DNA of 64,000 nt from an uncultured Gemmatimonadota bacterium. Its GTDB lineage: Bacteria; JAAXHH01. A program made the position numbers and the translations under genes. The stretch is taken from contig OX638340.1 in the NCBI GenBank assembly GCA_951812955.1, positions 448,001 to 512,000 of the forward strand. The letters are read 5' to 3'. Below, piece by piece: positions 3,519 through 55,769 of this stretch. How positions within the stretch are numbered: the first letter of the stretch is position 1; each line of letters starts with the position of its first letter. The notes under the pieces were generated by a model. It was not told the DNA's origin and searched no databases. It was given only the letters and a program-made list of their open reading frames with translations.

Positions 3519-5477
3519 TCAGTCGATGTAAAACTGCTCGGGGAAACTCGTCGCGGGACCCGCGATGGCCCACGGGCCGAGTATTCCGCTGTCGGGTACG
3601 TTATGGAAGTTGTTCTTCACGATGACGGGCTTGGGCGTACGAGCTACCGTGCCCAGATGAAAGGGTCCATGTTCGATGTGGATCCGCACGGCGTCCTGTA
3701 CCAGCCGATGACGGGCGTCCAGGTCCTTCTCCCGCTTGATCCGGTCGTAGATATCGAGCAGTGCGACCATGACGCCCGTGGGCGCCTCGCCCTTTTCGCC
3801 GCCCGTTTCGTACCACTTGCCCACCTTGGGATGCCAGTATTTCCCAGACGTTGGAAACACCCAGTCGGGGTAGGTGAACAGGTCCATTTCCGCCTCGCCG
3901 TGGAGATGGGCGGTGAACTCGCCGAGGTCGCGACGCAGTTTCAATTCGGCGCCGGGTGGCGTATAGACTAGGACGTCCAGTCCCAGTTCCCGCCAACCCT
4001 CGGCCACGATCAGGGCGACGTCATTCTCGTGGGCGATGTGCGCCGCCGCCGGCGCGTCCAGCACGAGGGTCAGCCGCTGGCCATCGGGACGAACCCGGTA
4101 CCCTTCGGCGTCACGGCGGGTAAGCCCCATCTCGTCGAGCAGCCTGTTCGCCATTTCCAAGTCGAATTCCGCGTCGGTAGCCTTCCACAGGTCGAAGAGC
4201 CGTGCGCCCTCCGTGTCCAGGAAATGCCAGCCTTCCTCGCTCACGGTGGCGCCCTGGGGCTCCACCAGGCCCTTGAAGGCGACGGCGTTGCATTTCTCGC
4301 GGTCGATGGCCGCGGCGAGGGCCTTCCGGAATCGCTGGTCTCGTATCAGGCCGCGGAGGACCGGGTCGTTGTCCGACCAGTTGAGGTTGATCGCGGGATC
4401 CGCGCCGGATGCACTCTCCCACAATTTGACCCGGTATCCGCCCTTTTCCCGGCTTTCCATGAAGAGCGAGAAGTCCCGCAGGTCGAGATCACGGAACTGG
4501 CAGTCCACTTCTCCGGCCAGCACCCGCAGGACCCGGATCTGAGACTCAGGGACCAGGGTCGTAACCACCCTGTCGATATAAGGCAACTGGCGCCCGTTGT
4601 CATCCACGACGTAGTAGTAGGGGTTGCGTTCCAGGATCACCCGGAATCCGCCCTTCTCGATGCGGGAGATCGTCCACGGCCACAGGGAAGGCTTTTCCGG
4701 GTTGCGCTGGGGCAGCCTGTGCTTCTCGTATAACACGAAGTCGTCCACCCCGGCGTTGTGGTCCGGATGGAACTGCTTCATGTAGTGTTCCGGCACGTTA
4801 TACTCTTCGCTCCACCAGAAGCCGGTCGCCAGCCACAGGGGCACGAGCCAGTTGGGCCCGGCGAATTTCATGACGATGGTGTAGTCGTCCGGTGTTTCCA
4901 CCTCCATGGGCTTGCCGTCCACGAGACACCACACGGGCGGCGGGTAACGGTGTCGGTCGTCGAGACACAGGTCGTACCACGCGCGGAAGGAAGCCGAAGT
5001 AAAGGGATGGCCATCGGACCACCGCACGCCCTCACGCAGTTTGAGGGTCAGCGCCGTGCCGTCCTCGTTAAACGCCCACGATTCCGCCAGGCCGGGCTCG
5101 AGGCCCGTGGTCATCCGGTTCCAACGGATCAGCGGGGCGTATCCGGCGATCATCTTCCAGGTGCCGAGGTCCGTATTGTTGTGCAATTGACGCCAGGTCC
5201 CGCCGTAGACTCCGGGACCATCGTACCCTTCGTAATCATTTTTGGCCACGAGCGGGTTGGCGGGGATCCGTTCGTGAAGGGGCGGCAGGTTGCCCTCAGC
5301 TACCCGGGCGGCCAGTTGTGGCGCTTCCAGCGACGAGCGGGCCGATGCGTCGGAAACCGGTACGTCCGATGCGGGTCCGCCGCCATTGCCGGTACAGGCC
5401 AGCAGTCCGGTCAGGGCAATAAGAGGCAGGTAATTCAGTATCTCTCTCGTTCTTCGTCTCATCCGTGACTCCAACAA
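3519..5477 (-). CDS. ABC transporter substrate-binding protein, family 5 (peptide/nickel/opine type), lipoprotein
   Basis: 652 aa. Signal peptide with the lipobox LLAC. Size and architecture match SBP_bac_5. It sits between the ATPase and permease genes. Confidence 0.85.
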   Translation of the reverse strand: MLESRMRRRTREILNYLPLIALTGLLACTGNGGGPASDVPVSDASARSSLEAPQLAARVAEGNLPPLHERIPANPLVAKNDYEGYDGPGVYGGTWRQLHNNTDLGTWKMIAGYAPLIRWNRMTTGLEPGLAESWAFNEDGTALTLKLREGVRWSDGHPFTSASFRAWYDLCLDDRHRYPPPVWCLVDGKPMEVETPDDYTIVMKFAGPNWLVPLWLATGFWWSEEYNVPEHYMKQFHPDHNAGVDDFVLYEKHRLPQRNPEKPSLWPWTISRIEKGGFRVILERNPYYYVVDDNGRQLPYIDRVVTTLVPESQIRVLRVLAGEVDCQFRDLDLRDFSLFMESREKGGYRVKLWESASGADPAINLNWSDNDPVLRGLIRDQRFRKALAAAIDREKCNAVAFKGLVEPQGATVSEEGWHFLDTEGARLFDLWKATDAEFDLEMANRLLDEMGLTRRDAEGYRVRPDGQRLTLVLDAPAAAHIAHENDVALIVAEGWRELGLDVLVYTPPGAELKLRRDLGEFTAHLHGEAEMDLFTYPDWVFPTSGKYWHPKVGKWYETGGEKGEAPTGVMVALLDIYDRIKREKDLDARHRLVQDAVRIHIEHGPFHLGTVARTPKPVIVKNNFHNVPDSGILGPWAIAGPATSFPEQFYID

Positions 5478-10039: not shown

Positions 10040-12286
10040 TCAACTCCCCTTCGACTCTACTGTTTTATCGATCTCGGGGGCCGTTCCTACCGGCTCCTCG
10101 TCCGATCCGTCCTCCGATGGGACTCCGTTACCATCCACTGAAGGCGCATCAGATGTCGATGCTTCAGTGTTCGACGCAGTGTTCGACGCTTCCGGCTTTT
10201 CCGTGCCAGGTTCCGGGGATTGCACTGATTCTGCAGCCTGCCCAGACTCCGAGGCCTTGGCAGACTCTTCGGTCTCGGCGGTCTGCCCAGACTCCGCGGC
10301 CTGCTCAGCCTCAGCGGCCTTCGCAGTCTCCGCGGCCTTCGCAGCCTCCTCAGCCTCGGCGGCAAGTCTTTCGCGCTCCTGTTCCATCGCCTCGAATTTG
10401 TCCTTCCCATATATGAGCTTTGCTACTTCATCCCTTATGAGCGTATCGTGCTCCAGCAGGGCCTTGGCCACGAGATGAAGCTGGGGTTCGTAGTCCCTGA
10501 GCAGTTTCTCCACCCGGTCTCCGGCTTCGGACACGAACCGCTGGATCTCCTGGTCGATCCGGTGGGCGGTTGTTTCGCTGTAGTTCGGCTGGTGGGCGAT
10601 ATCCCGGCCCAGGAAGACCTCGTGCTCCTTCTCGCCCAGGGCCGTGGCCCCAATTTCCTCGCTCATCCCCCAGTCGCATACCATGTGGCGGCTGATCCGG
10701 GTGACCTGTTCGATATCGCTTTGCGCGCCGGAGGTGACTTCCCCGAAGACGATCTGCTCGGCCGCGCGGCCTCCCAGTGCCGCGGCCATCGTGCCCAGGC
10801 AGTACGAGCGGGACTGCAGGTAGCGCTCCTCCGGCAGGGAAATAGTCACGCCCAAACCGCGGCCCTGCGGCAGGATCGTCACCTTGTGCAGTGGGTCGAT
10901 TTCTTCGATGAGTTCGAAGGCGAGGGCATGGCCGGCCTCGTGGTAGGCCACGACTTTCCGCTCCTTGTCGCTGATCACGAGATGCCGCTTCGCGCCCATC
11001 ATCATCTTCTCTTTCGCCTCTTCGAAATCCTCGTTCGTCACGGAGGTGTGGTCGTACCGCGCGGCAATCAGGGCGGCTTCGTTCACCATGTTAGCCAGGT
11101 CCGCCCCGACCATCCCAGGCACGCCCTTGGCCAGCACGTCGAGCTTGACCGAGTCGTCGAGCGGGATTTTGCGGCTCTTCACATGTATCTCAAGGATCTT
11201 TTCCCGACCCACCACATCGGGCCGGTCGACGACGATATGGCGGTCGAAGCGGCCGGGACGGAGCAGGGCGGGGTCGAGCACGTCCGGCCGGTTGGTTGCG
11301 CCGATCACGATGATGGAATCCGTCTTTTCGAAGCCGTCCAGCCCCACCAGCAACTGGTTCAGGGTTTGTTCCCGCTCGTCGTGCCCGCCGCCGAGGCCGG
11401 CGCCGCGGTGACGGCCGATGGCGTCGATTTCATCGATGAAGATGATACACGGGGCGTTCTGGCGGGCCTGGTCGAAGAGATCGCGCACGCGGGAGGCGCC
11501 GACCCCGACAAACATCTCGACGAAGTCTGATCCGCTCATGCTGAAGAAGGGCACGCCCGCCTCGCCTGCCACGGCCTTGGCCAGCAGGGTCTTGCCGGTA
11601 CCCGGGGGGCCCAGCAGCAGTGCGCCTTTCGGTATGCGGCCGCCCAGGGCGTGGAACTTGTCCGGATTCTTCAGAAATTCCACGATTTCCTGCAGGTCGC
11701 GCTTGGCTTCGAGCACCCCCGCCACGTCGGCGAAGGTGATGGAGGGCCGATCTTCGACGATCATCTTGGCCCGGCTCTTGCCAAAGGAGAACATGCCGCG
11801 CTGTCCCGACTGCATCTGTCGCAGAATGAAAATCCAGAACCCGATCAACAACAGCCAGGGCAGGGCGGCGATGAGGTAGCCGACCCAGTTGGTGGCCTCC
11901 GGCTCGGCCGTCACCATGACGTTCCTGGCCATGAGATCGGCTACGAGATCCGGATCGTCAAAGGGGATGTATACCTTGAAGTCACGCAGGCTCTGGTTCG
12001 TGCCCTCGATCATCGTCGATGAATCCTGACGGAGCCGGCCGGTTATCAATTTCTCGGTGATGGTGACCTGCTCGATATTGTCGGCTTCGAGAAACTGCTG
12101 GAACTGCGTGTAGGAAACCGTAATCGAGCTATCGCCCCGCTGGGGAAGGAACTGCGCGGCCATCAGGAAGAAAAGGAAGAGCACGAGCCAGATAAGGATT
12201 GAGCGGTTCTTCTTCGACTTGTCCGGCTGTGGCTGTCGTTCGTTTCGGGGCGGGGGCTGTTGCCGTTCGTTGTGCGGTTGGGACAT
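10040..12286 (-). CDS. ftsH: ATP-dependent zinc metalloprotease FtsH, with a Pro/Gln-rich N-terminal extension and a ~150-aa acidic Ala/Glu-rich C-terminal tail
   Basis: AAA+ Walker [23 protein letters not shown], second region of homology, zinc-binding HEAGHAL, two N-terminal TM segments flanking a periplasmic domain. The tail contains [45 protein letters not shown]... Confidence 0.95.
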
Positions 12287-29048: not shown

Positions 29049-29876
29049 ATGACACCCCTTTCACTCGGGTACTCTCCCTGTCCGAACGATACGTTCATCT
29101 TCTGTGCCTTGACCCAGGGCAGGATTCCCGATGCGCCTCCTTGCCGTGAGGTATTGGAAGATATCGAGTCCCTGAATACCCTCGCTCTTGAGCGGAAACT
29201 GGACCTGACGAAAATTTCCTTTCACGCCCTGGCCCACCTCAGGGACCATTACGTCCTGCTCCGGTCCGGTGGGGCGCTGGGCCGGGGATGCGGCCCCCTG
29301 GTGGTTTCGAGAGAACCGTTGTCGCCGGAACGGTTGAAGGGAAAGAAAATCGCGCTGCCCGGACGCCTGACCACGGCGGCACTGCTAATGAGGCTTTTCG
29401 ATCCTGCCCTGGATCGACTGGTCTACCTTCCATTCGACGAGATCATGCCGGCCTGCGAACGCGGTGACGTCGACGCCGGGGTGATCATCCACGAAAGCCG
29501 GTTTACTTTCGCAGCATACGGCCTCTCGCAAGTGATCGACCTCGGAGCCTGGTGGGAGGAAGAGACCGGTCACCCGATACCCCTGGGAGGGATTCTCGCG
29601 CGGAGGGACCTGGGACGTTCGATGCACGAACGGCTCGACCGGTCGATACGATCGAGCATCGAATTCGCCTATGCCCATCCCTGTGAAGTCAGGCCCTATA
29701 TCAGGCGCTACGCCCAGGAAATGGATGAAACGGTCATGCAGCAACACATCGATCTCTACGTGAATGAGTACTCCCTGCAGTATGGAGAGGACGGGGAAGC
29801 TGCTATTCACGACCTGTACGCACGCGCCGAGGAAGCCGGTATCGTGCCTGCGTCGGGTCATTCACTGTACGAGTGA
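29049..29876 (+). CDS. mqnD: 1,4-dihydroxy-6-naphthoate synthase (MqnD)
   Basis: The N-terminus LSLGYSPCPNDTFIFCAL is the characteristic MqnD (PF02621) start. 275 aa. Confidence 0.8.
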   Translation: MTPLSLGYSPCPNDTFIFCALTQGRIPDAPPCREVLEDIESLNTLALERKLDLTKISFHALAHLRDHYVLLRSGGALGRGCGPLVVSREPLSPERLKGKKIALPGRLTTAALLMRLFDPALDRLVYLPFDEIMPACERGDVDAGVIIHESRFTFAAYGLSQVIDLGAWWEEETGHPIPLGGILARRDLGRSMHERLDRSIRSSIEFAYAHPCEVRPYIRRYAQEMDETVMQQHIDLYVNEYSLQYGEDGEAAIHDLYARAEEAGIVPASGHSLYE

Positions 29877-33770: not shown

Positions 33771-33889
33771 TGGACGGCTAAGGGAACCGGATCATGTCCA
33801 TAGTACCTGGGCTGCGCGATCAGGACCACGCGGTCAGGTCCACGTGGTCAGATCCACACGGTCAATCGCAATCGGTCAGTTGCAGACAA

Positions 33890-35296
33890 TCAGGACCACA
33901 CGGTCAGCCCCATGACGAGATATACGACACCTGTGAGCACGGCGGCGATCATCGCATAAGGGATCTGCGTTCTGACGTGATCGATATGGTCGGATGCGGC
34001 GCCTGTCGAGGCGAGGATGGAGGTGTCAGAGAGCGGAGAGCAGTGATCGCCGAAGACCCCGCCGCCGGCCACGGCCGCTATGGTCGCGTATACGATGTCG
34101 GTCAATACGTCCCCCGAATATACCAGGGCCACGGGCACCGCGATCGGCAGCATGATGGCAAAGGTACCCCAGGAAGTTCCGGTGGAAAAGGCCATCACGG
34201 CCGCCAGCACGTAGGCGCACAAGGGGAGCATGGACGGGGTGAGGAAATCCCTCGAAATCGATACCATGTAGTCGGCCGTGCCCATGTCTTTGCTCAGCTG
34301 GTTGATGGTATAGGCGAAAGCCAGGATCATAATGGCCGGCATGATCCCCTTGATACCCGTCATCGCCGTGTCCATGATGTCGTTTAGCTGAATGCCCTGT
34401 ATACGAATCGAAATACCCAGGAAAATCACGACGGCGAGATAGGCTTCGAGCGTCTTCGCGGACCCGGTTAGAATGAACGAGCCCAGGACGATGACGATAA
34501 TCAGGATGACCGGCAGGATGAAGTTCAGGAACAGGCGCGGCTTGATTTCCGGGAACATCGGGGTCTCGGTCAGTTCCCGTCCGATGAGCGGTACCGCCCC
34601 GTCTCTGAGCACCTTGCCTTCCTTCAAAGCCCTGCGTTCCGCTTTCTTCATGGGACCGAATTCGGGGACCAGCCCGGCGGAGAACAGACCGACCAGAATT
34701 ACCGCCGCGAAGGCATAGATATTGTAGGGAATGGAATGTATGAAGGCGTTCAACGCATCGCCGGGATTGGCTATGGGGCCCATGCCGATGGTGAGTCCCG
34801 ATATGTAGATCGCCCATCCCGTGAAGGGCATGAGCACGATGACCGGGGCCGAGGTGGAGTCTGCGATATAGGCCAGCTTCTCCCTGGAAATCCGCGCCTT
34901 GTCGGCCAGGCTCCGCATCGTGGTCCCGACGAACAACGGGCTGAAGTAATCGCTGAAGAAGACGAACATGCCCAGCACCCACGTCCAGAGCTGCACGCCC
35001 TTGCGCGACAGCTGTCGGTACGCCACCCACTGGGTAAACGTCTGGATGGCGCCGGTTCGGATGAAAAAGGCGATCATGATCCCGATGCAGATCTCGAGAA
35101 GGAATACCCAGGAGAAACTGGTGTTTCCGATCGCGTTGATCATCAACTCGGAAAACCCCAGGGGACCCTGACCCGATATCAGGACGCCGACCAGGCAGGC
35201 CACCGCCAGGGAATACACGGCGTTCCGGGTCGTGAAGGCCAGCACGATGGCAAGGGCCGGTGGCACGATGGAGAGGATGCCGAGGTTTGTTTCCAT
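33890..35296 (-). CDS. Na+/H+ antiporter NhaC family transporter
   Basis: 468 aa, multi-TM, with NhaC-family conserved regions (YIADSTSAPVIVLMPFTGWAIY; FSTGTSWGTFAIMLPIAVP). Confidence 0.85.
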   Translation of the reverse strand: METNLGILSIVPPALAIVLAFTTRNAVYSLAVACLVGVLISGQGPLGFSELMINAIGNTSFSWVFLLEICIGIMIAFFIRTGAIQTFTQWVAYRQLSRKGVQLWTWVLGMFVFFSDYFSPLFVGTTMRSLADKARISREKLAYIADSTSAPVIVLMPFTGWAIYISGLTIGMGPIANPGDALNAFIHSIPYNIYAFAAVILVGLFSAGLVPEFGPMKKAERRALKEGKVLRDGAVPLIGRELTETPMFPEIKPRLFLNFILPVILIIVIVLGSFILTGSAKTLEAYLAVVIFLGISIRIQGIQLNDIMDTAMTGIKGIMPAIMILAFAYTINQLSKDMGTADYMVSISRDFLTPSMLPLCAYVLAAVMAFSTGTSWGTFAIMLPIAVPVALVYSGDVLTDIVYATIAAVAGGGVFGDHCSPLSDTSILASTGAASDHIDHVRTQIPYAMIAAVLTGVVYLVMGLTVWS

Positions 35297-35467: not shown

Positions 35468-36265
35468 ATGGAACACCTCAGCTACATGCTGATCGATCCC
35501 CCAGCTCGATGGGGCGGGAGTATCGACGATACCTTCGGTTTCATAAGAAACAGCGGATATACCGGCGTGGAACTTAACCTCACACCGGAACTGGTGAGCC
35601 GGCTGGATGAAATCGAACGCGCTGCCCGCGGAAATCAACTGCGCGTTGTTTCCCTGCTCACGGGTGTGGCATACGAGGACGGGCTCTGTCTCAGCTCCCC
35701 AGATGAATCAATCCGCGAAATGACCGTCGCCCGTCTGGTGGAGAACCTGGAGACCGCGGAACGGTTCAACGCCATACTCGTGGTCGGATTGCTTCAGGGA
35801 CTGCGGTCCGATGAACCGGACCCGGATGTCGCCAACGAACGGATCGTCTCCTGCCTGCAGCTTGTTGGAAGGGAAGCGGAATCGAAAAGTATAGACATTG
35901 TGATCGAGCCGGTAAACCACCTTCAAGTGGGGTTCAATCACAGCGTGGGCGAGGTCCGTAAACTGATCCGCACCATCGGGTCGAGCGCTTTTCATCCCAT
36001 GGTCGATACGATTCACATGAATATCGAAGAGACCTCTCTCGTCAAGCCGATCCAAGACTGCGGCGCCAGTCTCAGGCACGTGCATCTCTGTGAAAGCCAC
36101 GGCGGCCTGCCGGGAACCGGCCGAATCGACTTCGCGGAAGTACTCCATGCCCTGAAAGGCATAAACTATCCGCATTTTGCATCGGTGAAGGTCTACCGAA
36201 AGGCCGGGTTGCGGGAAGCGGTGGAGCGGAGTATGGCTTACTTCAGGGGCTTGCGGTCGGGATAG
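35468..36265 (+). CDS. Sugar phosphate isomerase/epimerase (xylose isomerase-like TIM barrel)
   Basis: 265 aa with a xylose-isomerase-like TIM-barrel pattern (IVIEPVNH, HVHLCESHGG). Confidence 0.85.
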   Translation: MEHLSYMLIDPPARWGGSIDDTFGFIRNSGYTGVELNLTPELVSRLDEIERAARGNQLRVVSLLTGVAYEDGLCLSSPDESIREMTVARLVENLETAERFNAILVVGLLQGLRSDEPDPDVANERIVSCLQLVGREAESKSIDIVIEPVNHLQVGFNHSVGEVRKLIRTIGSSAFHPMVDTIHMNIEETSLVKPIQDCGASLRHVHLCESHGGLPGTGRIDFAEVLHALKGINYPHFASVKVYRKAGLREAVERSMAYFRGLRSG

Positions 36266-36393
36266 GCTTGCTGCCAGTGGCTTGCGGTCGGGATAGGCTT
36301 GCTGCCGGTGAATCGGGATAGGTGGGCCTCTCCGTAAGGGCCATTTCGGCTTTTGTGGATGACACGTCTTCAGGGCCATTCCGGCTTTTGCGG
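36248..36393. repeat. Two short tandem direct-repeat blocks at the junction of convergent genes
   Basis: A 31-nt unit ggcttgcggtcgggataggcttgctgcc(a/g)gtg in about 2.4 copies (36248..36322), overlapping the stop of the upstream gene. Then gggccatt(t/c)cggcttttg(t/c)gg twice, 35 nt apart (36338..36393). Confidence 0.6.
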
Positions 36394-37413: not shown

Positions 37414-38748
37414 TCACTTCATCTGCTCCAGCCTGGTCCGGTACTTGTCATACAGGTCGGTGTGCTTGCTGCTGATATCGACCGGCCGGCCCTGGATGAA
37501 GGCCCGTTCCACCTGGGTCATGATCTCGAGGGGGTCCCCGTCGGTCACGATCAGGGTGGCGTCCTTGCCCGTCTCCAGGGAACCGAGCCTGTCTTCCACC
37601 CCGAGGATACGCGCCGGATAGAGGGTGACGGATTTCAACGCCTCTTCCCTGGGCAGGCCGTAGGCCGCCGCGGTCGCGGCGTGGTAGGGCAGGTTCCGTA
37701 CGTTCGAACCGCCGCCGCCTTCGAGCCATACCCTGCGCTCGCCGATGCAGAAATCCAGGCCGGCTTCATAGAGTTTCAGGGCATTGGTGAACGGCGCGTC
37801 ATAGGCTTCCCAACGGCGAGCGGGCAGGTAATGCACGGCGCCGATGATCACAGGGATCGCGTTTTCCTTCAAGCGGTCCGCCACCCGCCATACGTCCGCC
37901 CCGCCGACCAGGACGATCTTGAGATCTTCGGCGAGGGCCCAGTCGATGGCGGCGTGGATCTGTTTTACTTCAGATGCGTGTACGAGAACGGGAAGTTCTT
38001 TCTTAAGCACCGGGATCATCGACTCCCAGCCGAGGTCGGAGGGATGAAACGGCCCGCCGGTGCGTTCGGCCTCCTTGGCGATCATGTATGCCCTGGCTTC
38101 GCGAAAGGCGTCGCGAAGTCTGGTAAGGGCTTCCCTGCGCGCTTCGACCTGCTTCTCCCGGCTGTCCGCACCGGGAAAATCGAATATGCGGTAGGATGGC
38201 CAGCGTACGTGAAGTCCCACCGTCGATTGCAGCGTCATTTCCTCAGTGGTCCAGCCATCCAGCGCGATAAGGCCGGAAAGCCCAGAGATCAGGCCGCCAC
38301 TGGGCATGGTCAGGGCGGTCAGTATCCCGTTCGCACGGGCAACAGGGAAGTACTCGCTGTCGGGATTCACGGCGGTAACCGCGCGGACGCTCGGGGTAAC
38401 GTCCCCGATTTCCACGTTGTCCTGGGTCGCCCGCACCGAGCTGATCTCGGTCAGTCCCAGGGTCGTCGGCGCGGCGATCAGCCCGGGATACACATGTTTC
38501 CCCGTAACGTCGATGACCAGCGTGTTTTCGGGCAGGGCCAGATCGGTCCCGATACCTGTTATAACGCCGGCATCAAAGAGCACCGTGGCGCCTTCGAGGA
38601 CAGCGCCGCTCACCGTATGCACGGTTCCGCCAGTCAGGGCGATGGGACGAGCCTGCGGCCCGGACGGTTTCTGCTTGGAAGCAGCCGCCTCGTGGACCAT
38701 GGGACCGGATGCGAGACCAGCAATCAACAATACAGCCATCGTTCGCAT
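37414..38748 (-). CDS. Amidohydrolase family protein (secreted metal-dependent hydrolase)
   Basis: Amidohydrolase fold motifs (GKHVYPGLIAAPTTLGL; the C-terminal D-loop region GKDATLIVTDGDPLE). The true start is uncertain because the 5' end holds a 36-bp tandem triplication with three in-frame ATGs (38748, 38784, 38820). The track ORF extends to 38892. Confidence 0.75.
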   Translation of the reverse strand: MRTMAVLLIAGLASGPMVHEAAASKQKPSGPQARPIALTGGTVHTVSGAVLEGATVLFDAGVITGIGTDLALPENTLVIDVTGKHVYPGLIAAPTTLGLTEISSVRATQDNVEIGDVTPSVRAVTAVNPDSEYFPVARANGILTALTMPSGGLISGLSGLIALDGWTTEEMTLQSTVGLHVRWPSYRIFDFPGADSREKQVEARREALTRLRDAFREARAYMIAKEAERTGGPFHPSDLGWESMIPVLKKELPVLVHASEVKQIHAAIDWALAEDLKIVLVGGADVWRVADRLKENAIPVIIGAVHYLPARRWEAYDAPFTNALKLYEAGLDFCIGERRVWLEGGGGSNVRNLPYHAATAAAYGLPREEALKSVTLYPARILGVEDRLGSLETGKDATLIVTDGDPLEIMTQVERAFIQGRPVDISSKHTDLYDKYRTRLEQMK

Positions 38749-38838
38749 CCAACAAGCGCCTGCGAGTACAGCCATTGTCCGCCTCCAACAAGCGCCTGCG
38801 AGTACAGCCATCGTTCGATTCCAACAGGCGCTGGAAGA
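38731..38838. repeat. 36-bp tandem triplication within the 5' coding end of the amidohydrolase gene
   Basis: Three 36-nt units (tacagccatcgttcgcatccaacaagcgcctgcgag and two near-identical copies). They encode RTMAVLAGACW(R/M) three times, each with an in-frame ATG. Confidence 0.8.
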
Positions 38839-38900
38839 CTTCGCCGAACGCCGCGTCCCCTGGATTGTCCGGGGCAATATCACCATCTCCAACCTCCATT

Positions 38901-38940
38901 CGCCGGGAAACCGGCCTGTCCGCCGGGAAACCGGCCTGTC
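38901..38940. repeat. Perfect 20-nt tandem duplication, each copy forming a 5-bp stem with a GAAA/UUUC tetraloop, between two amidohydrolase genes
   Basis: cgccgggaaaccggcctgtc appears twice. GCCGG-GAAA-CCGGC is a perfect hairpin. It lies immediately downstream of the stop at 38946. Confidence 0.7.
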
Positions 38941-38945
38941 CGGTC

Positions 38946-41936
38946 CTACGCCTCCGGCGACGCTTCCCCGGTCTCGGACGAACCTTCGTCCGCATCGGGC
39001 GACTTGAGCAGTTTCTGAATCAGTCTCGTTCTTTCTTCTTCCACTTCTTTCCTCATCTGCCTGTCTTCATCGATATCGAAGTATCTTCTTCCGTCGATCC
39101 AGGTCTGTTCGCATTTCGTATACGTGGACAGGGGATGGCCGTTCCAGATCACAAAATCGGCGTCCTTGCCCGGCTCGAGCGATCCGACCCAGGGATCGAT
39201 GGCCAGTTGCTTCGCCGCGTTGAGCGTGACGAACTTCAGGGCTTCTACCTCGTCGACCCCGCCGTATTTCACCGCCTTTGCCGCCTCGGTGTTCAGTCGC
39301 CGGGCGAGTTCATCGCTGTCGGAGTTGAAGGTGACCAGTACGCCCGCGTCGTGCATCAAGGCCCCGTTGTAGGGAATGGCGTCGTAGGCTTCCACCTTGA
39401 ACGCCCACCAGTCGCTGAAGGCAGAAGCACCCGCGCCGTGGGCGGCCAGTTCGGGTGCGACCTTGTACCCCTCCAGCACGTGTTGAAAGGTGCCGATCGT
39501 AAAACCGAAATCTTCGGCCACCCGAAGGAGCATCAGGATCTCGTCCTGCCGATAGGAATGACAGTGGACGAGACGTTCGCCGGCCAGGATCTCCTGCAGT
39601 GTTTCCAGTTCGAGGTCGCGCCGGGGAGGGACGACGCCGGATTTATCTTCCAGAGCGTTGTACCGGTCCCACGACTGTTGATATTCCCGGGCCGCGCGGA
39701 AACGGTCGCGGATGATCTGTTCGACCCCCATGCGGGTCTGTGGATAGCGGTCGCTGAGAATGCGCCAGTTGCTGCGCTTGACGTTCTCGCCCAGGGCGAA
39801 CTTGATCCCCGCCTTGGCTTCGGAGAATTTGAGTTCCTCGGGGCCTGTACCCCATCTCAGCTTGATGACCTGGTTCTTGCCGCCAATCGGATTGGCCGAC
39901 CCGTGCAATACATTGGCCACGGTGAGACCGCCGGCCAGCTCTCGGTACATGGCGATATCGTAGCTGTCGATGACGTCTCCGATACCCACCTCGGCGGTCA
40001 CGGCCTGCGTGCCCTCGTTGATGCCCTCCATGATGGCCGTGTGCGAATGGGCGTCGATGATGCCGGGCGTGACGTGCTTGCCGGTACCGTCGATTTCTAC
40101 GGCATCCTCTGGCGCTTCGAGGTTCGTACCCACCTCGTCGATTTTCCCCGCGCGGATCAGCACGTCCGCGTTTTCCAGTTTGCCCCGCTCGTCCAGCGTC
40201 CACACCGTGGCGTTCCGCACGACGAAGTATTCCGGCTGCGCTGGCGCGCTTTCTCTACCGAAGGCTCCGGGTGGATACAGCGCCGGCGGTTCGTCTGCCG
40301 CGGCGGACTTCGGAATCTCCAGCGTTACCGCTTCATGCTCCGCGATGCGTTCCGCTGACCAGCTCACGCTTTCGCCGCCGGGGCGGACCCCCCGGCCCGA
40401 GATCCGGTCTCCCTGGACAGAACCCGAAAAACGCCAAACACCGGCTTCACCCAGCGCTTCATGCTCAATGCTGAATGCGATTCGGGTATCGTCCAGGTCC
40501 ATGCGGACCGTCTTGATCGTGGTACCGTCTTTGTCGATGGTGCCCTTCGGCGAACCCGCCGATCCTTCAATGGCCAGCGACAGGCTGTCTCCCTGCAGGA
40601 CGATCAGCCACGTCCCCCGTGGATCGACTACCGGGCGTGGGGTGACCACGTGACGGTTACCCGCGACCCACACATCCTGCACGCGCACGCCCTCAGCGAA
40701 CAGGGGGCCGTCGGTAATCGTCATGTTGGCCAGTTTCCCGGACTCCAGCGTACCGAGCTGGCGGCTAATGCCAAGCATGGATGCAGGGGTCGTAGTCAAC
40801 GAGGCCAGCGCGGCTTCATAATCCAGCCCGTGCTCGATCGCTTCCCGCACCCTTTCGTGAAAGTCGGCGCTTTTACCCAGCCTTGTACTGCTCAGCGCAA
40901 TGGGGATCCCGGCCCGGTGCAATTGGCCCGGATTCCCGGGCGCCAGGTCCCAGTGCCGCAGTTCTTCCAACGTGACGTCCACGGCGTCTTCCGGCGTGGA
41001 TACGGAGAGATCTTCCGACCGTGGAAAATCGAGCGGCAGGATGACCGGCGCGCCCACTTCGCGCACCGCGTCCAGCATGCGGTATTCATGGCCGCTGCCC
41101 CGGACGAGGAATCGAAGTCCGAATTCATCCGCCAGACTGGCGGCACGCAGAAAGGCGTGGTCGTCATCGACACTCATGAGAACGGCCTGGCCGCGGGCGA
41201 TCACCCCGTCCAGCGCCGCCAGCGCGTCATTGTCCTCCGGGCGTTCCTGCTGGGGATTCTCTGCGAAAGCCGCATGGGCGTCCCGGTACCATTGCGCGTC
41301 CAGGATCGTCTGCCGTATGAGGGCCGCGACGCCCATCATGGAGGCCGGATAGGTGCGGTTCCGGTTTCTCTTCATGCGCAGATGCTGGAACACATCGCGC
41401 TTCAGTATGTTCTCGTTGGGCGATCCGGAACCCAGGTTCACCACCGCGCTGCTGCCAGAGAAAACTCCCCGATCGGCTACGACCATGGCCGCCGCGAAAC
41501 CGGATTTACGCAGCCGGGCGAGTTCCTGCTCACTGACGCGGTATGCTTCGCCGGCGGCGCGTTCAGGACGGACACCGGGATTCCAGTGGGTCGATCCCGT
41601 GGACTTCTCCGCTTCCTCTTCCGGCAGGCCGGCCTGTGTGAACATCTCGATCAATCCGGGATAAATGGTCTTGCCGGAATAGTCCCACCGCTGGGCGTCC
41701 GGTGGAATGTCGACGGACGCTCCGGCTTCCACGATCAGCCCGTCCCGGACGATCACGACGCCCCTGTTGATCACGAGATCGGGCCGGACGTAAATCCGGG
41801 CGTCCTCCAGGGCGTGGACGCGTGAAGGATTCTCCCGCAGTCCCGTCTGCGGCGCCGTCTGCTGGGCTTCCGCGGCAAGGGTGACCGCCCCGGACAGCAG
41901 CATGGCCTGGATCATGATCCAACAGGTTTTCAGCAT
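38946..41936 (-). CDS. Large two-domain amidohydrolase family protein with signal peptide
   Basis: Start at MLKTCWIMIQAMLLSGAVTLAAEA (ATG at 41936, with a perfect AGGAGG 6 nt upstream). Two amidohydrolase modules (GKTIYPGLIEMFTQAGL...; ...GIIDAHSHTAIMEG...). About 996 aa. Confidence 0.85.
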   Translation of the reverse strand: MLKTCWIMIQAMLLSGAVTLAAEAQQTAPQTGLRENPSRVHALEDARIYVRPDLVINRGVVIVRDGLIVEAGASVDIPPDAQRWDYSGKTIYPGLIEMFTQAGLPEEEAEKSTGSTHWNPGVRPERAAGEAYRVSEQELARLRKSGFAAAMVVADRGVFSGSSAVVNLGSGSPNENILKRDVFQHLRMKRNRNRTYPASMMGVAALIRQTILDAQWYRDAHAAFAENPQQERPEDNDALAALDGVIARGQAVLMSVDDDHAFLRAASLADEFGLRFLVRGSGHEYRMLDAVREVGAPVILPLDFPRSEDLSVSTPEDAVDVTLEELRHWDLAPGNPGQLHRAGIPIALSSTRLGKSADFHERVREAIEHGLDYEAALASLTTTPASMLGISRQLGTLESGKLANMTITDGPLFAEGVRVQDVWVAGNRHVVTPRPVVDPRGTWLIVLQGDSLSLAIEGSAGSPKGTIDKDGTTIKTVRMDLDDTRIAFSIEHEALGEAGVWRFSGSVQGDRISGRGVRPGGESVSWSAERIAEHEAVTLEIPKSAAADEPPALYPPGAFGRESAPAQPEYFVVRNATVWTLDERGKLENADVLIRAGKIDEVGTNLEAPEDAVEIDGTGKHVTPGIIDAHSHTAIMEGINEGTQAVTAEVGIGDVIDSYDIAMYRELAGGLTVANVLHGSANPIGGKNQVIKLRWGTGPEELKFSEAKAGIKFALGENVKRSNWRILSDRYPQTRMGVEQIIRDRFRAAREYQQSWDRYNALEDKSGVVPPRRDLELETLQEILAGERLVHCHSYRQDEILMLLRVAEDFGFTIGTFQHVLEGYKVAPELAAHGAGASAFSDWWAFKVEAYDAIPYNGALMHDAGVLVTFNSDSDELARRLNTEAAKAVKYGGVDEVEALKFVTLNAAKQLAIDPWVGSLEPGKDADFVIWNGHPLSTYTKCEQTWIDGRRYFDIDEDRQMRKEVEEERTRLIQKLLKSPDADEGSSETGEASPEA

Positions 41937-42008
41937 GATTCTCCTCCTGCAGAAAAGATTCAGATACTGATTAAAACCCAAAGCAGCACAATAACTTACT
42001 AACATTCA

Positions 42009-52781: not shown

Positions 52782-52976
52782 ATGTAGCTTCTCCTGGATA
52801 ATGGGTCCAACCGGCGCGCATGTATTCAGCCGCAGGGCGGATCAGTACACCGGTTGGCCGTGTTGCGTTTTTGGCGGTATGCCGGACTTCCAGGCCAGGA
52901 TTTTGCGGAGAACAACCGGGCTCAGAAGCAGTGAGGAAGGATGAAAAACAAGTCGTAAGAATCTGGAAATATCGGA

Positions 52977-53050
52977 TCGGGGCGGGGAGATTTGAACTCC
53001 CGACCTCCTGCTCCCGAAGCAGGCGCGCTGACCGGGCTGCGCTACGCCCC
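52977..53050 (-). tRNA. tRNA-Pro (anticodon CGG)
   Basis: The minus strand reads GGGGCGTAGCGCAGCCCGGTCAGCGCGCCTGCTTCGGGAGCAGGAGGTCGGGAGTTCAAATCTCCCCGCCCCGA. It has a cloverleaf with T-loop GGTTCAAATCC-like and anticodon loop UUCGGGA. Confidence 0.85.
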
Positions 53051-53099
53051 GATATGTGTACAAACAGGAGCAAGGACCCGGCGGGCTGCCTTGCCGAAA

Positions 53100-53173
53100 T
53101 CGGGGCGACTGGATTTGAACCAGCGACCACCAGCCCCCCATGCTGGTGCGCTACCTGACTGCGCTACGCCCCG
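53100..53173 (-). tRNA. tRNA-Pro (anticodon GGG)
   Basis: The minus strand reads CGGGGCGTAGCGCAGTCAGGTAGCGCACCAGCATGGGGGGCTGGTGGTCGCTGGTTCAAATCCAGTCGCCCCGA, with anticodon loop AUGGGGG. Confidence 0.85.
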
Positions 53174-53252
53174 AAACTTCGGCGTGTAATTTACGGAGGC
53201 AGGGGGTTTCAGGCAAGGGAATTTTTCGGTGTCAGATCGTGGTCCGGCGTGG

Positions 53253-54209
53253 TCACATACGGCCGCGTGCCTGTTCGACAAACCATAGGTGGTCGGCGCG
53301 GATCAGGGATTCGTCCCGTTCGGCAGTGGCGAGAAAACCGAGTTTGTTCACGACGCGCAGAGCGGTGTACAGGTCCCACCACGGCAGGCAGCCGAAGTCC
53401 ACCCGATTCACGGATTCGTAGTACCGGGTGAAGGCGTCCATTATGTCTGGTCCGTAGAGCATCAGGATCTCGAACCGGGCATTCGACACGTCGTAGAGGG
53501 GATCCCCCAGGCGCGTGTCTTCCCAGTCGATGACCGCAGTGAGCCGGCCATCCCGCCAGAGCGTATTCCCCGGCCAGTAGTCTCCGTGCAGGACGACCGG
53601 AGTGTTATTCAAGGACAACGGCCAGCGTGGATTAAGCAGATCCAGCAAAGTACGTTCATCGGCCGAGACCAGGGCAGGATCACTTTTTCTACAAAACGCT
53701 TCGGTACAGTCATCCTCCAGCTTCAGCAGGAAATCGAGATCCCGTCCGGCCAGATCCATCTGGTGGACCTTGGCCAGTTCGCCCGCCATCTGCATCACGT
53801 AGTCCGTGGGATCATCGGGTTTCAGGTCGGTAACGCCTTCCATGTATTCCACGACGAGGGACGGCGTAGAGAACAATGGGTCGTTCGAGTCCAGGTAAAC
53901 CGGATTGGGCGTGGCCAGGCCTGCCGCGTGCGTTAACTGAAGGACCCGGAACTCGTCCGCGGCCACGTTCGGGTTCTGCTGAAGGTCGACCTCGCCGTGC
54001 AGACGGTGAATGAGTTTCCTCATCGTACCATCCGATAACTCGATTTCCAGGACGGTCACGTCGGCCGAATAACCACCGGGCAGGCTGAGATGGCGCTTCA
54101 GCCTGGCGTGCGGATTGAATCTGTGGACCAGTTTCTCGAACCGACTGGATTCGTCTACAGTTGCCATGTGTCTCAAGTACAGTTGGTTTCCCGACCAAGC
54201 CCGGACCAT
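53253..54209 (-). CDS. Phosphotransferase enzyme family protein (APH/CHK kinase-like)
   Basis: Kinase-like motifs VVLHGDYWPGNTLW (catalytic HGD) and AVIDWEDTRLGDP (DWE/DFG-like). The start may be the internal MATVDESSRF (54167). Confidence 0.8.
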   Translation of the reverse strand: MVRAWSGNQLYLRHMATVDESSRFEKLVHRFNPHARLKRHLSLPGGYSADVTVLEIELSDGTMRKLIHRLHGEVDLQQNPNVAADEFRVLQLTHAAGLATPNPVYLDSNDPLFSTPSLVVEYMEGVTDLKPDDPTDYVMQMAGELAKVHQMDLAGRDLDFLLKLEDDCTEAFCRKSDPALVSADERTLLDLLNPRWPLSLNNTPVVLHGDYWPGNTLWRDGRLTAVIDWEDTRLGDPLYDVSNARFEILMLYGPDIMDAFTRYYESVNRVDFGCLPWWDLYTALRVVNKLGFLATAERDESLIRADHLWFVEQARGRM

Positions 54210-54214
54210 ACCGG

Positions 54215-54300
54215 ACTAAACCGACCGATCCGGCCCAAACCGACCGATCCGGCCCAAACCGACCTATTCTGACCCAACCAGACCGATCTGGACCGGACAT
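54215..54300. repeat. Intergenic degenerate tandem repeat of a ~19-20 nt unit
   Basis: aaaccgaccgatccggccc appears twice exactly, flanked by degenerate copies (ccggactaaaccgacc...; aaaccgacctattctgaccc; aaccagaccgatctggaccgg). Confidence 0.65.
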
Positions 54301-54320: not shown

Positions 54321-55769
54321 CTATTCACCCGGGTAGTCGATCGCCCACCTACCCTCGAGATTTCCGCTGCCGCTCGTTCTGCTCCAGAGGGAAACCACGT
54401 CGGCCGGTGCGTTGTTTTCCGCAAGATGAGCAAGAAACAGTGCGTGCAGGTCATCCAGTGTGTCCACGTTGTCGTCGGCGATATTGTTTTGGGTCAGGCG
54501 GTCATTCGAAAGGTCGTAGAGCTCAGGCCTGCCGTCGGCTCCGACCGGTGCGTAACCCCAACGATCCGTAACGAGGAATGGCGTCGTGGCCCGTCGGGGC
54601 AGGCCGTCACCCGGCATCGCGATGTGGCATCCGCTGACTGCGTAGTCGCGATGGGTCGGCCGGCCATCCAGCACGGCGGGGGCGAAGGAGGCTCCATCGA
54701 AAGGCTTCGGTGGTTCGACCGTGACGGCGGCCAGGTCGCAGAGACTCGGGAACAGGTCGATTGTCTGTGCGATCAGGGGCAGCCGCGTACCTCGGGGTAC
54801 CGCGCCTCCGGCCAGCATCAGCATGACGTGGCCGATCTCCGGGTAGATGGGCCAGTACCTGCCGTCGTCCTCCTGAATGTTTGATTTCCCGGTCCGATCG
54901 TGTTCTCCGATGGACATGCCGTGGTCCGACATGACGGCCACGATGGTGTCATCCCACAGTTCGAGGTCGTCGATCTTCCGCAGGACCTGGCCGATGTGAC
55001 GGTCCACGAGTTCCGCTTCTGCCGCATAATGGGCCCACAGGTTGTGAAGTTCCTCCGGCGTATAGGCGGACGATGGGCCGTAGTTCGGATGCAGCATGGG
55101 CGGACCCGAATAGTCGGGATCGTAGCGTCGCACCAGGTATTCCGGCGGATCCCAGGGTTCGTGGGGATCGAAGAAATCCACCCACAGGAAAAACGGGTTG
55201 GATTCGGCGTTCTCCTCGAGCCAGCGGATTGCGGTCTGCGCCGTCCCGGCCGAGAAGACTTCGGATTCATATCGGTAGTACCGGTTGAGCCAGCGGTGCT
55301 GGTTGACGAGCGTATGCCCGCGAAACCTGGGGTTTATACGGGTTTTTTCGTCCCGGACGACGACATCGACGGGGTCGTTGAGGTGGAGCAGCGGTTTGTC
55401 GCCTTCCTGTCCACGATGCTGGTACGCCGCGTCGAAACCATCGGGGAAACGGGCCTTGAACAGGTGGGGACAGTCACAGATCAACTGCGTGGCGTATCCC
55501 TGTTCGCCAAGCATCCTGCCAGCGTGGTTGGGACCGCTCCGGTCGATGGCCTGCCATCCGTAGTGGGGCCATCCCGTAACGCCCGTCGCAAAATCGGTCC
55601 GGTGCGGGATTGTGGGGAAGCTGCCCATGTGGCACCGCGTGATCTCCGTGGCCCGTTCCGCTCCGAAGCGATCCAGCTCGGGCGTGCGAACGGGACGCTC
55701 CGCACGGCTTCCCAGGTTGTCGTGGCGAAAGGTATCCGTAATGAGTACGACGATGTTCTTCGGCATCAT
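54321..55769 (-). CDS. Sulfatase-like hydrolase/transferase (alkaline phosphatase superfamily) with Thr in place of the catalytic Cys/Ser
   Basis: The N-terminus NIVVLITDTFRHDNLG is followed by T-I-P-H-R-T-D-F-A-T-G, which aligns to the sulfatase C/S-x-P-x-R-x4-T-G signature with Thr at the nucleophile position. A downstream VAVMSDHGMSIGEH block is also present. Confidence 0.75.
   Translation of the reverse strand: MMPKNIVVLITDTFRHDNLGSRAERPVRTPELDRFGAERATEITRCHMGSFPTIPHRTDFATGVTGWPHYGWQAIDRSGPNHAGRMLGEQGYATQLICDCPHLFKARFPDGFDAAYQHRGQEGDKPLLHLNDPVDVVVRDEKTRINPRFRGHTLVNQHRWLNRYYRYESEVFSAGTAQTAIRWLEENAESNPFFLWVDFFDPHEPWDPPEYLVRRYDPDYSGPPMLHPNYGPSSAYTPEELHNLWAHYAAEAELVDRHIGQVLRKIDDLELWDDTIVAVMSDHGMSIGEHDRTGKSNIQEDDGRYWPIYPEIGHVMLMLAGGAVPRGTRLPLIAQTIDLFPSLCDLAAVTVEPPKPFDGASFAPAVLDGRPTHRDYAVSGCHIAMPGDGLPRRATTPFLVTDRWGYAPVGADGRPELYDLSNDRLTQNNIADDNVDTLDDLHALFLAHLAENNAPADVVSLWSRTSGSGNLEGRWAIDYPGE

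Follow-up and report, generated by a model that had tools for sequence, protein, structure and literature searches.

A 36-nt tandem repeat lies near the 5′ end of an amidohydrolase gene of an uncultured Gemmatimonadota bacterium (assembly GCA_951812955.1, contig OX638340.1), within a stretch of 64,000 nucleotides (positions 448,001 to 512,000 of the forward strand) that was analyzed as a whole and is referred to here as the window. All coordinates are those of the window. The gene is read from the minus strand and encodes a member of the amidohydrolase superfamily, and a second, larger amidohydrolase gene lies directly upstream of it with its stop codon at 38946–38948. The array sits where the charged part of a predicted Sec-type signal peptide meets the hydrophobic part. 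The features of the locus, listed in the reading direction of the gene, are as follows.

38901–38940, minus strand: exact 20-nt tandem duplication, GGACAGGCCGGTTTCCCGGC, in the inter-gene spacer just upstream of the Shine-Dalgarno sequence; one to three copies among relatives
38893–38897, minus strand: Shine-Dalgarno sequence GGAGG, 6 nt before the ATG at 38886
37414–38886, minus strand: amidohydrolase-superfamily gene, 490 aa from the ATG at 38886 and ~421 aa after predicted cleavage
38884–38886, minus strand: likeliest start codon, ATG, 66 nt upstream of the first repeat unit; predicted anti-Shine-Dalgarno pairing −10.0 kcal/mol
38680–38886, minus strand: 69-codon presequence, with a long charged N-terminal region that contains the repeat, a hydrophobic core, MAVLLIAGLASGPMV, and then HEAAA
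38803–38838, minus strand: unit 1; in codon register NRTMAVLAGACW, codons 23–34, 38820–38785
38767–38802, minus strand: unit 2, the middle unit and the extra one in the three-copy allele; in codon register RRTMAVLAGACW, codons 35–46, 38784–38749
38782–38786, minus strand: second GGAGG, inside unit 2, 6 nt before an in-frame ATG at 38775–38773; predicted pairing −9.3 kcal/mol
38731–38766, minus strand: unit 3, continuing into the hydrophobic core; in codon register MRTMAVLLIAGL, codons 47–58, 38748–38713

Tandem Repeats Finder placed a 36-nt array at 38731–38831 (2.8 copies, 87% matches, score 160), and a repeat search returned three head-to-tail 36-nt copies at 38731–38838 with 100, 92, and 75% identity to the reference copy. 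A 28-nt core, ATGGCTGTACTCGCAGGCGCTTGTTGGA, occurred exactly twice against an expectation of 0.00 from shuffles. The 36-bp in-frame tandem triplication at 38731–38838 that had been reported in the initial annotation of this DNA was therefore confirmed by all three measures. The 36 nt correspond to 12 codons in frame with the minus-strand open-reading frame (ORF) 37414–38892, and the array occupies codons 23–58 counted from the ATG at 38886. The units encode NRTMAVLAGACW, RRTMAVLAGACW, and MRTMAVLLIAGL with the consensus x-R-T-M-A-V-L-A-G-A-C-W, 12 residues per unit. The earlier rendering of every unit as (R/M)RTMAVLAGACW with its own ATG was right about the in-frame ATG, which each unit has, but not about all of the residues, as the first unit begins with N and the third departs from the others after MAVL. 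At that point the third unit passes into the hydrophobic core, in agreement with the further claim that the last copy runs into the signal peptide. Within the 64-kb window, no further occurrence of the 28-nt core or of a 16-nt core of the neighboring 20-mer was detected, and a dispersed repeat family similar to repetitive extragenic palindromic (REP) or mycobacterial interspersed repetitive unit (MIRU) elements was rejected, the unit having no other sites in the window. The array is an in-frame intragenic variable-number tandem repeat (VNTR) and displays every defining feature that was tested.

Ten close alleles were compared at the DNA level, and relatives at 88–98% nucleotide identity carried one, two, or three copies of the 36-mer. 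Records of these relatives are labeled Gemmatimonadetes, Candidatus Latescibacterota, or plain "bacterium", and we take their isolate names to be those of sponge- and coral-associated bacteria. Copy numbers of the 20-mer in the spacer and of the 36-mer in the coding sequence were as follows.

Window: 20-mer two copies; 36-mer three copies
L047: 20-mer two copies; 36-mer three copies
L046: 20-mer two copies; 36-mer two copies
L048 and L049: 20-mer two copies; 36-mer two copies
L002: 20-mer two copies; 36-mer two copies
L001: 20-mer one copy; 36-mer two copies
L044: 20-mer three copies; 36-mer one copy
L050: 20-mer one copy; 36-mer one copy
L045: 20-mer one copy; 36-mer three copies, diverged, with an additional 12-nt duplication

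The only close locus added by a metagenome scan, L051, has the allele of L001, with the same presequence of 57 residues and two units. Unit 2 is the one missing from the two-copy alleles L001, L002, L046, and L048. This comparison of orthologs and strains, which the initial annotation had proposed, showed that the triplication is not fixed, and the one-, two-, and three-copy alleles bear out the idea that a frame-preserving repeat changes the signal peptide through its copy number. The copy number is not an assembly artefact either. L047, from another sample and a separate assembly, matches the window at 97.6% identity over 21 kb and shares its three-copy allele apart from 4 differences in 352 nt, on a contig whose name, "ptg000768l", looks long-read. 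Because this separate assembly has the same three-copy allele, the artefact that had been considered a possible refutation was excluded. A collapsed or expanded repeat is a general risk in metagenome assemblies, and nothing more than this general risk favors it here; the copies differ from one another, two-copy alleles are present in at least five other assemblies, and the 108-nt array was judged shorter than a typical sequencing read. We accordingly give this explanation a vanishingly small probability.

Near-identical genomes also agreed in copy number, with three copies in the window and L047, two in L048 and L049, and two in L001 and L051. This bears on the fast slipped-strand switching that was originally suggested for the repeat. 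Contingency loci of Haemophilus and Neisseria consist of 1–9 nt units in long tracts, with frequent shifts of frame or promoter spacing. The present array resembles them in its position close to the 5′ end of a gene and in a tandem-repeat copy number, and hence length, that differs between relatives, and slipped-strand mispairing might in principle cause populations to switch this gene, or its N-terminus, frequently. A 36-nt in-frame unit, however, cannot switch a gene on or off, there are just one to three diverged copies, and the array is always in frame and evolutionarily stable, with the same copy number in all three of the above pairs. The assignment to phase-variable contingency loci was therefore rejected on two counts, the unit not being short and near-identical genomes not varying, and we regard rapid switching as very improbable. 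PMC12721329 is a recent example for simple-sequence contingency loci.

Translation most likely starts at the ATG at 38886, upstream of the array. In the set of 26 close loci (including the window, 78–95% protein identity), the motif CCGG-NNTC-CCGGCGAATGGAGG-N5-7-ATG was kept at the position of this ATG in every locus, and the same ATG has the strongest predicted Shine-Dalgarno site, whereas the ATGs of units 1 and 3 reach only −2.6 to −3.3 kcal/mol. Sites of the GGAG type are also used by neighboring genes in the closest relative. Over the 26 loci, no stop codon was found in the frame from ATG 38886, while the remaining two contained 36 and 5, and the length differences among loci were multiples of 3 throughout. 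Since the GGAGG-ATG is kept and several relatives (L004, L005, L012, L013, and L020) have Met-1 as their only Met ahead of the hydrophobic core, the ATGs within the units are most likely internal Met codons. One of them has been replaced by ATA in L002, in the extra unit of that allele, which speaks against a requirement for internal ATGs. The best-supported start codon thus lies outside the repeat, which had been thought to cover it.

A later start was weighed against this assignment. The true start could be the last ATG (MAVLLIAG...) or the Met of MRT, in which case the units would be copies of an initiation region within a 5′ untranslated spacer and the upstream frame would be incidental. 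The presence of an ATG in each unit is in keeping with such a start, as are the NCBI record P0121 (441 aa) and the entry P0123, both of which begin at the last Met. The distribution of substitutions among six single-copy species points in the same direction, being even over the three codon positions in the 24-codon N-terminal extension (71/75/76), while the hydrophobic and cleavage region gave 73/52/95. The even spread indicates that the extension is almost unconstrained at the amino-acid level. A late start would, however, have to rely on the weak pairing of its ATGs rather than on the −10.0 kcal/mol site, and would leave unexplained the GGAGG-ATG in 26 of 26 loci, the frame free of stops with its solely in-frame indels, and the relatives that have no Met ahead of the hydrophobic core. 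In addition, a protein beginning MAVLL would lack a positively charged N-terminal region. On balance, we consider a late start unlikely.

The ATG at 38775 is a possible second, internal start in the three-copy allele. The GGAGG that precedes it arose in this allele by one T-to-G change (TGGATGCGG to TGGAGGCGG), and a product initiated there would keep MRT and the hydrophobic core and give an identical mature protein. The gene caller applied to L047 selected the equivalent ATG (P0134, 453 aa). The 90%-identity cluster of the closest homolog contains proteins of 441, 453, 466, 478, and 490–495 aa, and the two shortest entries, of 441 and 453 aa, stem from calls of this gene that begin at later ATGs. 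The gene is public at all of these lengths because gene callers choose different ATGs within or around the repeat, and the conserved upstream GGAGG-ATG provides a consistent start for its annotation.

The presequence that begins at ATG 38886 reads as a Sec-type signal peptide. This assignment was made by inspection and alignment and relies on an R/K-rich N-terminal region, the hydrophobic core MAVLLIAGLASGPMV, and an A-A-A↓S site, all of them features of Sec export and processing by signal peptidase I. The predicted mature protein begins with SKQKP at 38679, and the window aligns to the junction of its homologs as HEAAA↓SKQKP. Homologs as distant as ~60% identity retain the junction A-x-A↓S(K/D)Q(K/I)P, and those at ~60–66% identity have ordinary short signal peptides that end in A-x-A before S(K/D)Q(K/I)PA(G)P. 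We infer from these features that the protein is exported and cleaved at AAA↓SKQKP. A Tat (twin-arginine translocation) signal, with its conserved S/T-R-R-x-F-L-K motif ahead of the core, was rejected, as RR at this position is confined to the middle unit of the window and L047 and to a few other loci (L010 and L018), with WMRT, WIRT, WRKRT, or similar in most loci; no Tat-signal model appeared among the best 25 of 28 NCBIfam matches. A lipoprotein signal for signal peptidase II was rejected by inspection, as the units read L-A-G-A-C, with one residue too many for the lipobox L-[AS]-[GA]-C, and have R/T within 6 residues upstream; the Cys is also missing in outgroup relatives, which have, for example, GTW or GGWW. 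The extended signal peptide region (ESPR) of type V autotransporters, an N-terminal extension of ~25 residues that precedes a classical signal peptide, is similar in architecture to the extension described here. It differs in that the cargo here is an amidohydrolase and not an autotransporter and that the extension is almost unconstrained, and it was rejected as an assignment after a Pfam scan of the full ORF returned Amidohydro_1 and Amidohydro_3 only. When a 74-aa presequence was used as the sole query, no homolog was detected at E ≤ 0.01, and there is therefore no evidence of a leader shared with other protein families.

The history of the units was examined on a neighbor-joining tree of 5,157 flanking columns. 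L045, with its three diverged units, falls outside a crown clade that mixes one-, two-, and three-copy alleles, and the inner nodes of this clade are weakly supported (17–65%). Copy number does not track the tree cleanly. Because L045 shares the junction V-L-x-G-A-C with the multi-copy alleles of the crown clade, the first duplication is probably older than the split of L045 (~10% nucleotide divergence). By parsimony, L044 and L050 probably reached their single copy through secondary contraction. The middle unit of the window and L047 is younger than the first duplication, as it has exactly the same 28-nt core as unit 1. The alternative offered in the initial annotation, a recent duplication, thus fits the third copy, with its identical 28-nt core in the first two units, but not the first duplication, which predates the ~10%-diverged L045. 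For the junction CTCGCA/GGCGC, two scenarios were considered. Either a 51-nt duplication extended into the hydrophobic core and 15 nt were later deleted, or SSSACWxRTMAV was simply duplicated as a 36-nt unit and then diverged.

Short tandem duplications are frequent around this gene. Indels of at least 6 nt across 21 kb in seven genomes were mostly intergenic, and at least four of the indel sites, at 29077 (29 nt), 33.8 kb (a 14-mer), 35459 (6 nt), and 38.9 kb (the 20-mer), represent tandem duplications; the 36-mer array was the sole large indel placed within a gene. The window as a whole is rich in short tandem arrays, most of them intergenic, and the genome in general appears to be prone to short tandem repeats between its genes. 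Two intergenic arrays, at 33815–33907 (14 nt, 6.3 copies) and 36244–36310 (31 nt, 2.2 copies), vary in length among the seven genomes. Others lie at 2357–2434 (9 nt, eight copies), with same-strand ORFs on both sides that were tentatively read as ABC-transporter permease genes, and at 54201–54294 (19 nt, 4.4 copies), between the same-strand ORFs 53253–54209 and 54321–55769. A coding repeat of 18/36 nt at 10274–10357 encodes the low-complexity Ala/Glu/Gln-rich C-terminal tail of a 748-aa ORF (10040–12286, minus strand) that was tentatively read by eye as FtsH-like.

The same segment of the amidohydrolase gene has been duplicated in frame in other lineages. L018 carries an independent duplication of 27 nt (2.2 copies, 100% identity) and L084 another of 39 nt (1.9 copies, 86%). 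In L016 and L020, single-copy relatives of L018, ACCGC direct repeats lie exactly 27 nt apart and are a ready substrate for slippage. A 10-residue insertion in L014 showed no tandem repeat with Tandem Repeats Finder, and L008 and L014 were therefore excluded from the count of duplications. As a control, the signal peptide of the large amidohydrolase was of constant length in 23 of 24 loci; the exception, L007, has an in-frame array of 18 nt × 5.2 (or 36 nt × 2.6) at 822–915 in the hydrophobic core, ...AVLVAGAVTRARAIRLTGAVILAGAVIFAGAVTLAA..., and thus a signal-peptide repeat in the other gene of this operon.

Taken together, we consider it likely that the array is a VNTR in a poorly constrained, cleaved signal peptide with its start at ATG 38886, that it originated by slippage or recombination, and that it leaves the mature enzyme unchanged. 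Translation would begin at ATG 38886, and each unit would add 12 residues to an already long N-terminal region just before the hydrophobic core. The amidohydrolase would be periplasmic or secreted, with signal peptidase I cutting at AAA↓SKQKP, and the mature enzyme would therefore be the same at any copy number. Replication slippage or unequal recombination may have created, enlarged, and shrunk the array, given a high supply of short tandem duplications in this lineage, and frame-keeping variants would survive in a presequence that tolerates changes in length. The cleaved presequence would, in effect, behave like intergenic DNA with a frame-keeping rule, and this near-neutral reading is consistent with the 20-mer in the adjacent spacer, of which the copy next to the Shine-Dalgarno sequence is kept while the extra copies decay.

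Several observations weigh against this explanation. The residues R-T-M-A-V are kept in all units, including those of L045, with synonymous changes (CGG/CGC/CGA and GCT/GCC), which hints at selection or gene conversion acting on the extra units. At least three independent duplications at the same site (36, 27, and 39 nt) within 26 close loci could mean positive selection. The strong internal GGAGG-ATG created by the middle unit may not be neutral, and an N-terminal extension that has no third-position excess of changes would fit untranslated sequence as well.

Some of these observations could instead be explained if copy number were adaptive, with the units tuning either export, through charge and length, or translation, through added starts such as the GGAGG-ATG of the middle unit. 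In-frame duplications that arose independently at the same segment in three lineages, the R-T-M-A-V residues retained through synonymous changes in every unit, and the new strong internal Shine-Dalgarno site with its ATG in the three-copy allele all speak for such tuning. Yet the extra copies of the neighboring 20-mer decay, one-copy alleles persist in the same clade with a copy number that does not follow the tree cleanly, and the extra unit of L002 has lost both its ATG and its W. An adaptive copy number is thus improbable in our judgment. A broader version, in which the presequences of both amidohydrolases are evolutionary tuning knobs and the recurrent in-frame duplications (36, 27, 39, and 18 nt, in four lineages) have been selected, is doubtful; if it were true, each unit would alter export kinetics or add a start, and copy number would set the amount of periplasmic enzyme.

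Compared with known systems, the array read as a VNTR in a cleaved signal peptide is real but ordinary, a fresh example of an already known kind. Intragenic in-frame VNTRs of bacterial genes are used in strain typing by multiple-locus VNTR analysis (MLVA), and the array resembles them in its head-to-tail units, a unit length that is a multiple of 3, variability among strains with the frame kept, and a presumed origin by slippage or unequal recombination. It is unlike them in lying in a cleaved signal peptide rather than in a mature, usually surface-exposed protein, and in having one to three partly diverged copies that change slowly and are stable at ~98% genome identity. The signal peptide of human APOB is polymorphic for an insertion/deletion of 9 bp (Leu-Ala-Leu) within its hydrophobic core and is similar in that a natural in-frame length polymorphism of a signal peptide leaves the mature protein unchanged; APOB is, however, eukaryotic and its indel is not a multi-copy 36-nt unit. 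A shallow full-text literature search returned no earlier description of a signal-peptide VNTR in bacteria, and two papers, PMC8546353 (a point mutation) and PMC12860257 (tandem gene copies), were set aside as irrelevant.

While the finding leaves the knowledge of signal peptides and tandem repeats unchanged, the locus offers a natural series of one-, two-, and three-copy presequences on an unchanged mature enzyme, along with the duplications of sister lineages, that could be used to test how far the N-terminal region of a Sec signal peptide tolerates changes in length and charge. The 36-mer and the adjacent 20-nt repeat may also be useful together for distinguishing strains of these uncultured bacteria.

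The amidohydrolase itself matched Amidohydro_1 and Amidohydro_3 in Pfam (43.6 bits vs a 25-bit cut-off and 37.2 vs 29.7, respectively), and its closest solved relative is PDB 3ooq (E = 9e-39). Matches to NCBIfam were all far under their cut-offs, the best being 42.5 bits vs a 500-bit cut-off.

The spacer between the two amidohydrolase genes terminates in GGAGGTTGGAGATG. In the 20-mer copy adjacent to the Shine-Dalgarno sequence, the palindrome GCCGG-NNTC-CCGGC is kept down to 78% protein identity and only the loop varies, while additional copies decay in the 3′ arm. The stem GCCGG/CCGGC is invariant across relatives. UUUCC could pair with GGAGG, with folding z-scores that were non-significant. 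Folding of the start region gave z = −1.6 and that of the 20-mer hairpin with the Shine-Dalgarno sequence z ~ 0, and a structured element was thus unsupported. A promoter and terminator scan of 38300–39400 found none, and a permissive Rfam scan of 38600–39100 returned only a chance-level match to Xoo5 (17.5 bits vs a 50-bit cut-off, E = 0.4). At gathering thresholds, Rfam matched two tRNA-Pro genes only in the whole window; these are adjacent, with anticodons CGG and GGG, at 52974–53174 on the minus strand.

Minor observations were also made on the neighboring genes. In L002 (OY762445.1, ~3920–4005), the stop codon of the large amidohydrolase reads CAG instead of TAG, and its frame, as read from the sequence, stays open across the spacer as far as a TGA that shares bases with the start codon of the next gene (TGATG). 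The large amidohydrolase of the window is probably over-extended across 41936–42005 when its longest ORF is taken (1019 aa, start 42005); relatives have a 996-aa call that begins at the counterpart of ATG 41936 (MLKTCW...), and in L047 this ATG is preceded by AGGAGG. Upstream of the amidohydrolase pair, L045 (6682–6897) and L050 (6684–6899) have a second small gene of the UGSC family (71 aa, PF24696), which is not called in L044, L046, L047, and L048.

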